From: Escherichia phage LHE83
Strand: one strand, 5' to 3'
DNA length: 64,000 bases
Sequence record: OQ561750
A program made the position numbers and the translations under genes. Shown here one piece after another: positions 21,966 to 32,957 of this stretch. Within the stretch, counting starts at the first letter, position 1; the number at the start of each line of letters is the position of its first letter. The notes beneath the pieces were generated by a model. The model was given only the letters and a program-made list of their open reading frames with translations. It ran no database searches and was not told the origin of the DNA.

Positions 21966-22039
21966 GGCCCTGTAGCTCAATGGTTAGCAGCAGTCCCCTC
22001 ATAAGGGAAAGGTTACCGGTTCAAATCCGGTCTGGGCCA
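21966..22039 (+). tRNA. tRNA with anticodon CAU (Met, or Ile2-type reading AUA as in the T4 tRNA-Ile)
   Basis: 74-nt cloverleaf: 7-bp acceptor stem (one U-U mismatch), anticodon loop CUCAUAA, T-arm ACCGG-TTCAAAT-CCGGT; position matches T4 tRNA cluster. Confidence 0.65.
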
Positions 22040-22751: not shown

Positions 22752-22826
22752 GTCCCGCTGGTGTAATGGATAGCATACGATCCTTCTAAGTTTGCGGTCC
22801 TGGTTCGATCCCAGGGCGGGATACCA
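22752..22826 (+). tRNA. tRNA-Arg (anticodon UCU), CCA encoded
   Basis: 75 nt; 7-bp acceptor stem, anticodon loop CUUCUAA, T-arm CCTGG-TTCGATC-CCAGG, 3-prime ACCA. Confidence 0.7.
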
Positions 22827-26859: not shown

Positions 26860-27072
26860 ATGACTATTGATGAAATTGAAAAACAAATCCGCGAATTAGT
26901 ACGTAAAGGCCAGGCCGTGGCTGACGAAACGGGTGAAGAGTTCCGTGTTTCTGGTCGTGGAGAATACATTTCTCCAAAGAACCCGGAATATGATGATTAC
27001 GAATGGGTCCGTGATGACTACGGTATTCCGGAAGGTGAAGGTTTCTGGTTTACATCCTCTATGTCTTGCTAA
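26860..27072 (+). CDS. Small protein, tandem paralog 3 (70 aa), C-terminus FWFTSSMSC
   Basis: TAAGGAAA SD; GRGEYISP motif. Confidence 0.5.
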   Translation: MTIDEIEKQIRELVRKGQAVADETGEEFRVSGRGEYISPKNPEYDDYEWVRDDYGIPEGEGFWFTSSMSC

Positions 27073-27083
27073 GGTGATAAAAA

Positions 27084-27308
27084 ATGTCTGATATTAATGA
27101 ATTAGAAAAAGCTGCACTTGAACTGGCTGCACTGTATAAGAAAGTAAAAGATATGGCTTCTGCTCAAAGTTTTGGTGTTGAGCTCGACGATTATGACGGT
27201 GAAGTTCGTCTCGAAGATTGGCTGAATAGCTCGTGTTATGGCGAAGAAGCTGGACGCACCTTCGTTGCTCAGGCCGATGGTAAAATCTGGTATCCGAGCT
27301 CATGCTAA
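27084..27308 (+). CDS. Small protein, tandem paralog 4 (74 aa), C-terminus IWYPSSC
   Basis: TAAGGTGA SD; divergent body, same C-terminal W-x-SS-C tail. Confidence 0.45.
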   Translation: MSDINELEKAALELAALYKKVKDMASAQSFGVELDDYDGEVRLEDWLNSSCYGEEAGRTFVAQADGKIWYPSSC

Positions 27309-28193: not shown

Positions 28194-29153
28194 ATGATGT
28201 TAGTTATTGGTTCTCGTGCACTGCACCACGCTGGTCTGATTGAAAGTAAGCATATCGAAAATTCTGATTGGGATTTCATTGCCGACCAAGGCTCATGGAA
28301 TCACTTTAAAGCTCGGATGTTTGGTGCCCATGTTCCTGTGGATAACCCTGATGTCCAGGCTTTTAAATGCATGTACAATGGTAAAGAAACCTATTTTGAA
28401 GCTTATATCGTTCGTGCCCTGACTAACGTACGAGAAATTACCGGTGAGCTTCAAGACGAAGATTTCACCTCAAGTTATCGTCTCCTGAAATATGCCGAAA
28501 ATCATATTAAAAAGGACCGTCTTACAGGTTTCTATTGGGCCACGCCTGATATCTGTCTGGCTATCAAAACCTCTCATCGTTTCCTGAAGAATAATCCGTT
28601 CTTCTTGAAAACTATGTCCCACATCAAATACCTTCGTAATAAAGGTATCACCCTGAACGAAGAACTCCAGGAAATTATGCTGCAACGTCAAAAAGAAACG
28701 TTGAGCTATTCCCACCCTAAATTGGATGTAAACAAATCATCGTTCTTTAATGATACCATTTATACCCTAGACCACGACTCTATCCATGAAGCAGTGGCAT
28801 TGGCAGGGCGCCCTGCATATACCTTTTATATGAAGGAAGGTTCTGAAGTCATGACCTCTCGTGAGAAGTTCGAGGCTTTGCCTGAAGCTATTAAACTGGC
28901 TGGTGTGTATGAAGAAACTTGTGTCCTGGCACTAGAACGTTCACAGGTTCCTAATGACTTCAATATTTCACCATCATTAAGTTTCTATATGGCCCTTGAG
29001 AAAGTGTGCACCTCAATCACTTCAGGTTGGTTCCGCACTTATGCATGGGAAAACTACCAAGCTGTGGTTAATATGTACAAGACTTTAGGTGAAAACGACT
29101 ACATTGAACGGTTTAAGCGTAACCAACATTTAATTCGTCCTTTCGAAAAATAA
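28194..29153 (+). CDS. Hypothetical protein (319 aa)
   Basis: Long ORF with GAGGAAAA SD; no recognised motif. Confidence 0.5.
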   Translation: MMLVIGSRALHHAGLIESKHIENSDWDFIADQGSWNHFKARMFGAHVPVDNPDVQAFKCMYNGKETYFEAYIVRALTNVREITGELQDEDFTSSYRLLKYAENHIKKDRLTGFYWATPDICLAIKTSHRFLKNNPFFLKTMSHIKYLRNKGITLNEELQEIMLQRQKETLSYSHPKLDVNKSSFFNDTIYTLDHDSIHEAVALAGRPAYTFYMKEGSEVMTSREKFEALPEAIKLAGVYEETCVLALERSQVPNDFNISPSLSFYMALEKVCTSITSGWFRTYAWENYQAVVNMYKTLGENDYIERFKRNQHLIRPFEK

Positions 29154-29165
29154 TTGCACAAAACA

Positions 29166-29194
29166 GTGTACAAGGTCTATAGGTGTGATACTAT
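29166..29194 (+). promoter_or_regulatory. Early promoter (GTGTAC-N17-TACTAT) with TATAGACCTATCAA box
   Basis: Variant -35; same cassette as at 20003 and 23887. Confidence 0.5.
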
Positions 29195-29231
29195 AGACCT
29201 ATCAAAACAACAGAGTGAAATGGAGAATAAA

Positions 29232-29444
29232 ATGAAACTTTCTAACCAAGCAATCAACATGTTAAACGAAGTTCGTGCAGCTGGTGCTAAATGCCTGATG
29301 GTTAACACTCGTGACGGTGACCTTCGTCAAGCATTTGGTGAATTGAAATCTGCTGACCTGGTTAAATGTTCAGTTGGTATTGGTAACGCACTTCGTGTAT
29401 CCTTATCCCCTAAAGGTAAAATGTACTTTTTCAACAAAAAGTAA
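29232..29444 (+). CDS. Hypothetical protein (70 aa)
   Basis: ATG after GGAGAATAAA SD. Confidence 0.45.
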   Translation: MKLSNQAINMLNEVRAAGAKCLMVNTRDGDLRQAFGELKSADLVKCSVGIGNALRVSLSPKGKMYFFNKK

Positions 29445-29458
29445 GTGAGGAAAATATT

Positions 29459-30148
29459 ATGAACGGTCCAAAAATTTTTAATTCTAAAGCTCGTGCAGTA
29501 GGTGGTTTTGCTCAAGATATCAGTAATGATATGATTAAAAATGAGCCTATGTTCTTTAATTGCGATGCTTATTTTGCTCATAAACATGGCGGTCCTATTA
29601 CTCGTAGCTTTATTGAAAACCTGCCTGAAGATTGGCAATGTGGCCCTGATATTGTATTTGATTCCCGTGTACACATGTTAATGCCTGGCTGGTACCCTGC
29701 AATCCCAGGCTTCCACCATGATGATGTACCACGTCCGGATATTCCGGTTGGCCAACACTTTATTACCGCAGGGCAACCTGATTATGATAATCCTCGATAC
29801 CATTCTGAACATATTCTTGGTCTTGTTAACGCTGATGTGTGTCCTACTCATTTTGCAACCGGAACTGCACAGTTCAGTCAGATTCCTGAAGGCGAACTTA
29901 TCTATCGCCAGTGGCATAAAGAAGTTCTGGAAAAAATTGAGTCCAATGAATTAACCAAGTGGGATGCTCCTGACCGCACGTTGCTCCAGTTTGATTGGCA
30001 GACATGGCATACAGGTTCTCGTGCAGTAAGTAATGGGTGGCGCTGGTTTGGTCGGGTGTCTCGTAATACAGACCGTGTTAAAAAGATTACAAATGAAATC
30101 CGCGTTAATGCTCAAGTATATCTGGAATTCCCTATGGAGGGCTGGTAA
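29459..30148 (+). CDS. Hypothetical protein (229 aa) with possible metal-binding HHDD ... H arrangement
   Basis: PGFHHDDVPRPD and TWHTGSRA segments seen; fold assignment unverified. Confidence 0.45.
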   Translation: MNGPKIFNSKARAVGGFAQDISNDMIKNEPMFFNCDAYFAHKHGGPITRSFIENLPEDWQCGPDIVFDSRVHMLMPGWYPAIPGFHHDDVPRPDIPVGQHFITAGQPDYDNPRYHSEHILGLVNADVCPTHFATGTAQFSQIPEGELIYRQWHKEVLEKIESNELTKWDAPDRTLLQFDWQTWHTGSRAVSNGWRWFGRVSRNTDRVKKITNEIRVNAQVYLEFPMEGW

Positions 30149-30735
30149 TGGCCCTTTATGAACCTGGTTGTATGGGTATTGATACAAACTTCATCCGTCG
30201 GTCGGAAAATGCTGGAATTATTATCCCAAGTGGTGAGAATACGATTATTAAAAAGTCCTGGCGAAATATCGATGACTGCGATGAAGGAATTTCAGCCAGT
30301 ACAATAGATTGGTCAGGTTGTACTGCCGAAATGAAACAGCTTTTAATTGAGGAATATAAAATGGGCTATATTGTAAACGGCTGGCAAGCGGAACCACATA
30401 AAGAACAGACTCCAGACCCATTGATTTGTTATAGCAAAAAATACGGCTTCCGTGCCTGGAGTGATGAATACGACAAATTGGTGAGTTCTAGATTCTATGT
30501 TTGGATGGGTATATTATTTTTCCCACTCCTAGGGTTTTTCCTGACAACAGATAATGACCTGCCTATTTGTGTATTCGCTTCAGCGATGTCTGCTGCTATC
30601 TTAGGTCTTATCGCATCATTTTTATGGACCTCTGTTATCGAAGTACCTTTTCGTATTTCTAAAGTTAAAAAGGTATATGACGATATCACTAAGAAAAATA
30701 CATTAAACTCTTTTATTAAGGAATGCCGTAAATGA
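30148..30735 (+). CDS. Membrane protein (195 aa) with C-terminal FIKECRK motif
   Basis: Two C-terminal TM helices; C-terminal tail paralogous to 25919 gene. Confidence 0.5.
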   Translation: MALYEPGCMGIDTNFIRRSENAGIIIPSGENTIIKKSWRNIDDCDEGISASTIDWSGCTAEMKQLLIEEYKMGYIVNGWQAEPHKEQTPDPLICYSKKYGFRAWSDEYDKLVSSRFYVWMGILFFPLLGFFLTTDNDLPICVFASAMSAAILGLIASFLWTSVIEVPFRISKVKKVYDDITKKNTLNSFIKECRK

Positions 30736-32016: not shown

Positions 32017-32613
32017 ATGAAAACGTATAAAGAATTTATCGCCGAAGCTTCTGTAGGAAAGGTCCAAGGCATTAATAAAGATGAGTGGACTTACAAAGGA
32101 AACGGCGTTGACAACCCAGGAAACGGTTTTGACGCTAAAACAGCTCCTATTGAACGGTATTTAGCTACAAAGGCTTCTGATTTTAAAGCTTTCGCCTGGG
32201 AAGGACTTCGCTGGCGTAACGACCTAAATATTGAAGCTGATGGACTTAAATTTGCCCATATCCAAGATGTTGTTGCTAGTAACTTGGACGCAGCTTTTGT
32301 TAAAGCTGACGGTGACCTTCGTCGCTGGAATTTAAAACTGTTCTCTAAACAGAAAGGTCCTGTATTTGTACCTAAAGCAGGTAAATGGACTATTGATAAT
32401 AAATTGGCTAAGGCGGTCAACTTCGCCGGTCTTGAATTTGCCAAGCACAAATCAGCATGGAAAGGTCTCGATGCAATGACTTTCCGTAAAGAATTTGCCG
32501 ATGTTATGGCTAAAGGCGGCTTTAAGGCAGAAATAGATACCTCTAAAGGTACGTTTAAAGACGCTAATATTCAGTACGCTTACGCCGTTGCTAATGCTGC
32601 CCGTGGTAATTAA
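32017..32613 (+). CDS. ipIII: Internal protein III-like (CTS MKTYKEFIAEA)
   Basis: 198 aa (T4 IPIII 194 aa); CTS N-terminus; position e-ipIII-ipII-denV as in T4. Confidence 0.6.
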   Translation: MKTYKEFIAEASVGKVQGINKDEWTYKGNGVDNPGNGFDAKTAPIERYLATKASDFKAFAWEGLRWRNDLNIEADGLKFAHIQDVVASNLDAAFVKADGDLRRWNLKLFSKQKGPVFVPKAGKWTIDNKLAKAVNFAGLEFAKHKSAWKGLDAMTFRKEFADVMAKGGFKAEIDTSKGTFKDANIQYAYAVANAARGN

Positions 32614-32654: not shown

Positions 32655-32957
32655 ATGAAAACCTATCAAGAATTTATCACCGAAGCGCGAGTAAGTGCGG
32701 GTAAATTAGAAGCCGCCGTAAATAAAAAGGCCCATTCATTTCATGATTTGCCCGATAAAGACCGTAAGAAACTTGTAAGCCTTTATATTGACAAAGAGCG
32801 TATTCTCGCTCTCCCAGGCGCTAATGAAGGTAAACAGGCCAAGCCTTTGAATTCTGTCGAAAAGAAAATTGATAACTTTGCTTCTAAGTTCGGTATGTCT
32901 ATGGATGACCTTCAGCAAGCGGCTACCGAAGCAGCTAAAGCAATTAAAGGTAAATAA
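32655..32957 (+). CDS. ipII: Internal protein II-like (CTS MKTYQEFITEA)
   Basis: 100 aa (T4 IPII 100 aa); CTS N-terminus; synteny. Confidence 0.6.
   Translation: MKTYQEFITEARVSAGKLEAAVNKKAHSFHDLPDKDRKKLVSLYIDKERILALPGANEGKQAKPLNSVEKKIDNFASKFGMSMDDLQQAATEAAKAIKGK

Follow-up and report, generated by a model that had tools for sequence, protein, structure and literature searches.

The question raised by this locus is which reaction would be catalyzed by the product of a short phage gene that carries no functional name, and towards which kind of substrate. The gene lies in a 64,000-nucleotide stretch of DNA from Escherichia phage LHE83 (record OQ561750), which was analysed as a whole and is called the window here; it comes from a T4-like phage that belongs to the genus Dhakavirus. 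The open reading frame of 229 codons that an earlier note had placed at 29459-30148 is exactly as claimed there, with an ATG start and a GAGG ribosome-binding sequence in front of it. Its product is identical to gp225 of Escherichia phage Bp7 (AEN93731.1), labelled "hypothetical protein", and over the 690-bp interval the two phages are 99.3% identical in DNA (protein, 100%).

The gene and its surroundings

The target gene is part of a co-directional series with the order DUF7277/DUF7275 gene, small ORF, target, e.2-like gene, 78-aa ORF, nudE and lysozyme gene e. The features of this region that matter here are as follows.

21966-22039, plus strand: tRNA-Met (CAT), about 7 kb upstream of the target
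22752-22826, plus strand: tRNA-Arg (TCT), about 7 kb upstream of the target
28194-29153, plus strand: DUF7277/DUF7275 protein of 319 aa, upstream of the target
29154-29444, plus strand: small ORF (96 aa) just upstream of the target
29447..29450, plus strand: GAGG Shine-Dalgarno sequence, 8 nt 5' of the target ATG, read directly from the sequence
29459..30148, plus strand: coding sequence of the target, a predicted oxygenase (229 aa, 690 bp, ATG start, PHROG 1843)
30146..30150, plus strand: TAATG, in which the target stop and the start of the e.2-like gene overlap by 1 base (from the sequence, the ORF list and the Bp7 annotation)
30148-30735, plus strand: e.2-like membrane protein, downstream of the target

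The stop-start overlap of the target and the e.2-like gene is consistent with co-transcription and possibly with translational coupling, and we propose that the gene would be co-transcribed with its co-directional neighbours, in an accessory region extending from the tRNA genes to lysozyme. Scans of the window for promoters and terminators gave sites that were no commoner than in shuffled sequence, and the timing of expression was for this reason read from gene order alone. In the syntenic region e.1-e.8 of T4, a homologue of the target was not found.

The tRNA-Met/tRNA-Arg pair is the counterpart of the tRNA genes found ahead of the e.x genes in T4. The 319-aa protein encoded at 28194-29153 on the plus strand has DUF7277 as its N-terminal and DUF7275 as its C-terminal part, and its N-terminus contains GSRAL...SDWDF, which we take to resemble the G-S ... 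DxD motif of nucleotidyltransferases. Two adjacent plus-strand ORFs of 70 and 74 aa (26860-27072 and 27084-27308) share W-[FY]-x-S-S-(x-x)-C as their C-terminus, and the C-terminal half of each is acidic and rich in Tyr and Trp; to judge by these sequences they are possibly paralogues. Between lysozyme e and denV, the plus-strand ORFs 32017-32613 and 32655-32957 start with MKTYKEFIAEA and MKTYQEFITEA, respectively, and these starts presumably resemble the N-termini that target internal proteins of T4 to the capsid. In Bp7 only about 60 bp separate e from denV, so the window has an insertion of about 1 kb as compared to its closest relative.

Fold, conserved residues and enzyme class

The target protein had no match in Pfam, in NCBIfam or among the PADLOC anti-phage defence models, and sequence and profile searches of the PDB gave nothing significant (best E about 1). 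The one plausible match among the weak ones, at E about 1 in a PDB profile search, was to the lysine halogenase BesD, an Fe/2OG enzyme, with the H184-R195 segment of the target aligned to the His/Arg-containing segment of BesD. When 104 family members were searched against Pfam, a single PhyH match with an E value of 0.068 was obtained, the gathering threshold of PhyH (PF05721) not being reached, and among these 104 members no match was listed to the AlkB-type profile 2OG-FeII_Oxy_2 or to the TET/JBP profile PF12851. As judged by these searches, the family is a divergent one that lies outside the Pfam, NCBIfam and PADLOC libraries, and a literature search found no characterization of the PHROG 1843 family. 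In UniProt, orthologues from Aeromonas phages (82% identity) are named "Phytanoyl-CoA dioxygenase family protein", whereas the exact protein is "Uncharacterized"; via these names, the class assignment given below is partly present in public databases already and is not wholly new.

Structure prediction, which had been proposed as a check on the original suggestion, was more informative. AlphaFold2 gave a pLDDT of 86.6 with 30 sequences, and with 104 diverse sequences a model with a pLDDT of 95.2 and a pTM of 0.91, in which a double-stranded beta-helix, the expected jelly-roll core, is present. The strands of this model comprise residues 65-74, 117-123, 130-139, 166-169, 174-179, 183-186 and 193-202. 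A canonical 2OG oxygenase has its HxD sequence after the first long strand, its distal His in the penultimate strand and its Arg where the last strand begins; in the model, H86 is found in a beta-bridge past the first long strand (65-74), H184 on the last-but-one strand (183-186) and R195 at the opening of the last one (193-202).

A Foldseek search with the second model placed 49 of the 50 best matches in the 2OG-oxygenase group (best E 4e-4, TM 0.3-0.42), and with two programs and two models the nearest structures were PhyH-like enzymes that act on free amino acids, ectoine, aminoglycosides or polyketides. In a library of viral structures, family members ("uncharacterized") came first, followed by marginal matches to PhyH or 2OG oxygenases of giant viruses and cyanophages. 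The best structural matches are relatives of PF05721, namely EasH (4nao), EctD (4nmi), ColD (8xpf), H11 (7dzz), GriE (5nci) and PAHX (2a1x), where 7dzz is proline hydroxylase H11, 4nmi ectoine hydroxylase EctD and 2a1x human PAHX. The target shares with these enzymes the HxD...H triad and a single-domain build of 220-290 residues. The likeness is one of fold (TM 0.3-0.42), with no significant sequence or profile match, and the target differs in being shorter, in having a long conserved loop (89-116) between HxD and the next barrel strand, in being phage-borne and in ending with a near-invariant Gly-Trp.

The original suggestion was based on two motifs, PGFHHDD and TWHTGSRA, said to be about 110 residues apart. 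Both are present, at residues 83-89 and 182-189, but the distance is 99 residues from start to start and 98 from H86 to H184. The loose pattern that they represent (HxD/E, 50-150 residues, H, 4-20 residues, R) turned up in 56% of 5000 composition-preserving shuffles of the target protein, and the motifs by themselves therefore carry no weight. It is by virtue of conservation, and not of pattern, that the iron-site motif can be considered real, as indicated by an alignment of 104 homologues with identities down to about 31%. In this alignment H86 is invariant (104/104), D88 and H184 are each present in 103 of the 104 sequences, and the intervening H87 is variable. The proposed HxD dyad and distal His thus stand, but the Arg has to be sought elsewhere than in TWHTGSRA: the majority residue at position 188 is Pro, and it is R195, 11 residues past H184, that is conserved instead, in all 104 homologues. 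The +11 spacing matches that of H264 and R275 in human PAHX, which we counted toward R195 as the 2OG binder, and from its conservation and position in the model R195 is predicted to bind the C5-carboxylate of 2OG. R199 and S/T201 are conserved as well (103/104 and 101/104, respectively). The family consensus at HxD, G-W-H-x-D-D, is similar to the WHxD motif of PhyH/EctD-type enzymes. The corresponding codons in the window are the following.

29714..29722, plus strand: codons of H86-H87-D88, which supply the HxD portion of the facial triad predicted to bind iron, with H86 and D88 as predicted ligands
30008..30010, plus strand: codon of H184, the predicted distal iron ligand (103/104; strand 183-186)
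30041..30061, plus strand: codons of R195-S201 (RWFGRVS) in the last long strand (conservation and strand 193-202)
30140..30145, plus strand: codons of the C-terminal G228-W229 (conservation)

Further near-invariant positions in the 104 homologues are E29, D68, R70, R92, Q106, H118, R215, Y221 and G228-W229, and such conservation outside the Fe/2OG site suggests a defined substrate pocket. The terminal residues (G228 in 100 and W229 in 102 of the 104) are always found at the extreme C-terminus; a role as a lid on the active site would be no more than a guess.

In view of the predicted fold and the conservation, it is very probable that the target is a non-haem Fe(II)/2-oxoglutarate-dependent oxygenase, and the earlier oxygenase-like reading is upheld at the level of enzyme class by the fold and by the 104 homologues. 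Sequence and model together place it in the 2OG-oxygenase superfamily, as a structurally PhyH-like member that is outside the profile-defined PhyH, AlkB and TET/JBP families of Pfam. The analysis shows the reading frame, its conservation, the predicted fold and the gene neighbourhoods; by analogy with the enzyme class, from which the mechanism is taken, we infer metal binding, 2OG binding, catalysis and the substrate class of a catalytically competent, stand-alone Fe(II)/2OG oxygenase of the PhyH-like structural group. The Fe(II) would be bound by H86, D88 and H184 and chelated by 2-oxoglutarate, of which the distal carboxylate would be taken by R195, possibly with help from R199 and S201. Oxygen-dependent decarboxylation of 2OG would then yield succinate, CO2 and a ferryl species, and the latter would hydroxylate or otherwise oxidize the substrate.

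Distribution of the family and its gene neighbourhoods

At 90% identity the family falls into 1469 clusters, and at 50% identity it has 717 representatives (E up to 1e-3); tblastn detected a copy in 472 of 50,697 phage records. The T4-like carriers are phages of Escherichia, Aeromonas, Klebsiella, Enterobacter, Serratia, Citrobacter and Erwinia; other carriers, siphoviruses among them, infect Stenotrophomonas, Acinetobacter, Bacillus, Gordonia and Mycobacterium. The family thus occurs in T4-like, T7-like and siphovirus-type phages with Gram-negative, Gram-positive and actinobacterial hosts. In cellular genomes (185,579 bacterial and archaeal species, one genome per species) only 24 loci were found, the annotated ones among phage genes. 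The proteins are mildly acidic (median pI 6.1) and are nearly everywhere annotated as "hypothetical protein". Three orthologues, from Escherichia phages vB_EcoM_005 (P0019) and vB_EcoM_ESCO10 (H38) and from Yersinia phage vB_YenM_P8 (P0282), are called "tail sheath monomer" or "baseplate hub subunit" in GenBank, and these names are almost certainly annotation errors.

A search of the family for domain fusions revealed no foreign domain: long homologues have N-terminal extensions that lack a Pfam match, or are tandem duplications of the oxygenase. In three of the latter (P0135, P0165 and P0218; 387-444 aa), an intact copy is fused to a degenerate one that has lost HxD and retains the C-terminal K-G-W, which hints that the single-domain protein may act as a dimer, and the fused form as an active with an inactive subunit. 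In Aeromonas phage 65 (H48; E5DSD9/E5DSE0) and in 44RR2.8t.2 and L9-6 (P0294, P0295), the orthologue is broken into pieces of 143 and 86 aa, or of 73 aa, a pattern in the sequences that suggests frameshifts or decay; the gene may accordingly be dispensable under laboratory propagation.

For a comparison of gene neighbourhoods, 188 loci were pooled from phage records, species genomes, IMG/VR and metagenomes, after which neighbours were clustered and recurrent ones annotated. The genes for e.2, DUF7275, the 96-aa ORF and NudE were near the oxygenase gene in 19-28 of the 40 T4-like loci (at least 74% identity) and in none of the 148 more distant loci, and the neighbours in the window were rejected as functional partners because this synteny is confined to T4-like phages. 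In other phages the oxygenase gene is placed in replication or accessory modules. Recurrent neighbours from replication and recombination are a DnaB-type helicase, a T7-type primase-helicase, DNA polymerase, SSB, RecT/ERF and methylases, and replication genes (DnaB, primase-helicase, SSB, DNA polymerase) form the majority of the remaining neighbours. Contigs assigned to Caulobacter, Paraburkholderia and Caballeronia (L013, L014 and L016) carry T7-like elements that encode a single-subunit RNA polymerase and in which the oxygenase gene lies between or beside those for primase-helicase and family-A DNA polymerase, within the class of DNA-metabolism genes.

A possible link of another kind is to NAD+ and ADP-ribose metabolism. 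It was examined in a sample of 82 loci, dereplicated at 90% and with at least 3 kb on either side. In 12 of these (about 15%), a gene for Nampt and/or a NatV-like NMNAT-Nudix protein is found within 6 kb on the same strand. Nampt is the commonest annotated immediate neighbour (5 of 69 loci). Its gene is directly upstream of the oxygenase gene in L062/L160, L069, L098, L103 and L132, with the Nampt stop overlapping the oxygenase start in L062, L069, L098 and L103, and genes for NatV, Nampt and oxygenase are on one strand in L085, L102, L103, L132, L136 and L183. The Nampt-linked oxygenases are mutually 45-59% identical, and their other neighbours differ. An ADP-ribosylglycohydrolase gene directly 3' of the oxygenase gene was seen in two loci, L183 and L029. 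The former, a metagenomic phage contig, encodes on one strand (L183:2223-7570) a NatV-like NMNAT-Nudix protein, Nampt, a 167-aa ORF, the oxygenase and the ADP-ribosylglycohydrolase; the latter (L029:7947-9706), with the oxygenase followed by the ADP-ribosylglycohydrolase, is on a contig binned with a Methanosarcinales MAG.

Known phage systems provide a baseline for these numbers. About 1.1% of phage genomes contain NARP2, an NAD+ reconstitution pathway that consists of Nampt and Nmnat (bioRxiv 10.1101/2024.02.11.579819), and in our own measurement a homologue of the Nampt/Namat family occurs in 4% of phage records. Against these baselines the enrichment of Nampt/NatV near the oxygenase is nominally strong, with naive binomial P values of 1e-10 to 1e-4 that ignore shared ancestry. 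The link is missing in 85% of the sampled loci, and neither Nampt nor NatV was found in the 64-kb window. Nampt also seems to occur often in phages that lack the oxygenase. In Alicyclobacillus phage KKP_3916, for example, which has a close Nampt homologue, no ORF of comparable size is annotated beside Nampt, so that the linkage does not appear to be obligatory, as far as this annotation alone can be read. In T4-like phages the target lies 0.8 kb upstream of nudE, and NudE of T4 is annotated as active on ADP-ribose and NADH; this proximity may be meaningful or coincidental. The NAD+/ADP-ribose neighbourhood, as read from gene order, should thus be regarded as a lead and not as proof.

Possible substrates and implications

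Our best guess for the substrate is a small metabolite of the infected cell, probably anionic, rather than DNA or protein. This leaning is due to the nearest structures being enzymes that act on small molecules and to the mildly acidic character of the family, while DNA could still be the target. Because related copies repeatedly adjoin genes for Nampt, NMNAT-Nudix and ADP-ribosylglycohydrolase, the metabolite may be linked to NAD+/ADP-ribose or nucleotide metabolism. A more specific proposal, which we consider rather unlikely, is that the family serves as an accessory enzyme of phage NAD+/ADP-ribose counter-defence, beside NARP2 and ADP-ribosylglycohydrolases, by oxidizing an NAD-derived molecule. 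The targets would be ADP-ribose, an immune signal of the cyclic-ADPR type or a pyridine by-product, and oxidation would remove a defence signal or feed the rebuilding of NAD+; in T4-like phages, the same purpose would be served without Nampt, near the NudE Nudix hydrolase. The described components of NARP2 do not include an oxygenase, and the text of the preprint mentions no oxygenase or dioxygenase (bioRxiv 10.1101/2024.02.11.579819). Most members of the target family also lack a NARP2-type neighbour, the linkage being restricted to 12 of the 82 loci and absent from the window.

The replication-gene neighbours would suit a DNA-directed role equally well. The target might be an AlkB-like demethylase that repairs phage DNA, RNA or tRNA, or a TET/JBP-like hydroxylase of bases in phage DNA, but on balance an oxygenase of nucleic acids seems unlikely. 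AlkB demethylases rank below the PhyH-like enzymes as structural matches and differ in the spacing of the Arg, and the target is acidic. The phage 5-methylpyrimidine dioxygenases of the TET/JBP family, as defined by the model PF12851, are likewise phage Fe/2OG oxygenases encoded among DNA-metabolism genes (PMC13229309). No TET or JBP structure is present among the best matches of the target, however, and a recurring methyltransferase, ParB or glycosyltransferase partner of the target family was not found. A connection with the arabinosyl-5-hydroxycytosine DNA modification of RB69-type phages was also weighed, and was rejected because the published gene set for it contains no such oxygenase. 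That the enzyme hydroxylates a protein of the host or the phage early in infection, for instance a ribosomal protein, a translation factor, a defence protein or RNA polymerase, is very improbable: structures of such hydroxylases score below the PhyH-like small-molecule enzymes, the search for a peptide-binding accessory domain or a fusion found neither, and the spread over Gram-negative, Gram-positive and actinobacterial hosts would need a universally conserved target, which nothing indicates.

There may also be no specific prime substrate at all, in which case the protein would rewire host metabolism by consuming 2OG and producing succinate, or would be a non-catalytic, cupin-like binder. Such a role would parallel a proposal for the PhyH-like and 2OG-Fe(II) oxygenase genes of cyanophages, which were suggested to modulate 2OG or to generate succinate (Sullivan et al. 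2010, PMC3037559). As 2OG dehydrogenase needs NAD+, conversion of 2OG to succinate without NAD could conceivably suit neighbours that act in NAD+ salvage. Yet the near-invariant residues outside the Fe/2OG site point to a defined pocket, and the invariant triad speaks against a non-catalytic binder. Uncoupled turnover generally inactivates enzymes of the 2OG-oxygenase class, and a protein without a prime substrate, or a non-catalytic one, is considered the most improbable of the readings discussed here. The cyanophage genes do resemble the target in encoding uncharacterized accessory oxygenases in T4-like phages (PMC3037559). They belong to a different sequence family, proteins of the cyanophages P-SSM5, S-SSM5 and S-RIM50 being only distant structural matches (Foldseek E 4e-3 to 1e-2, TM about 0.35), and the nitrogen/NtcA rationale proposed for them is inapplicable to coliphages.

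For PHROG 1843, the analysis provides a well-supported enzyme class, which in itself is an ordinary one. The naming of H86, D88, H184 and R195 should ease work with knockouts and point mutants in a tractable coliphage. If the NAD lead fails, an ordinary accessory oxygenase remains; if it is true, it would tie a 2OG oxygenase to the way in which phages cope with NAD+-depleting immunity.
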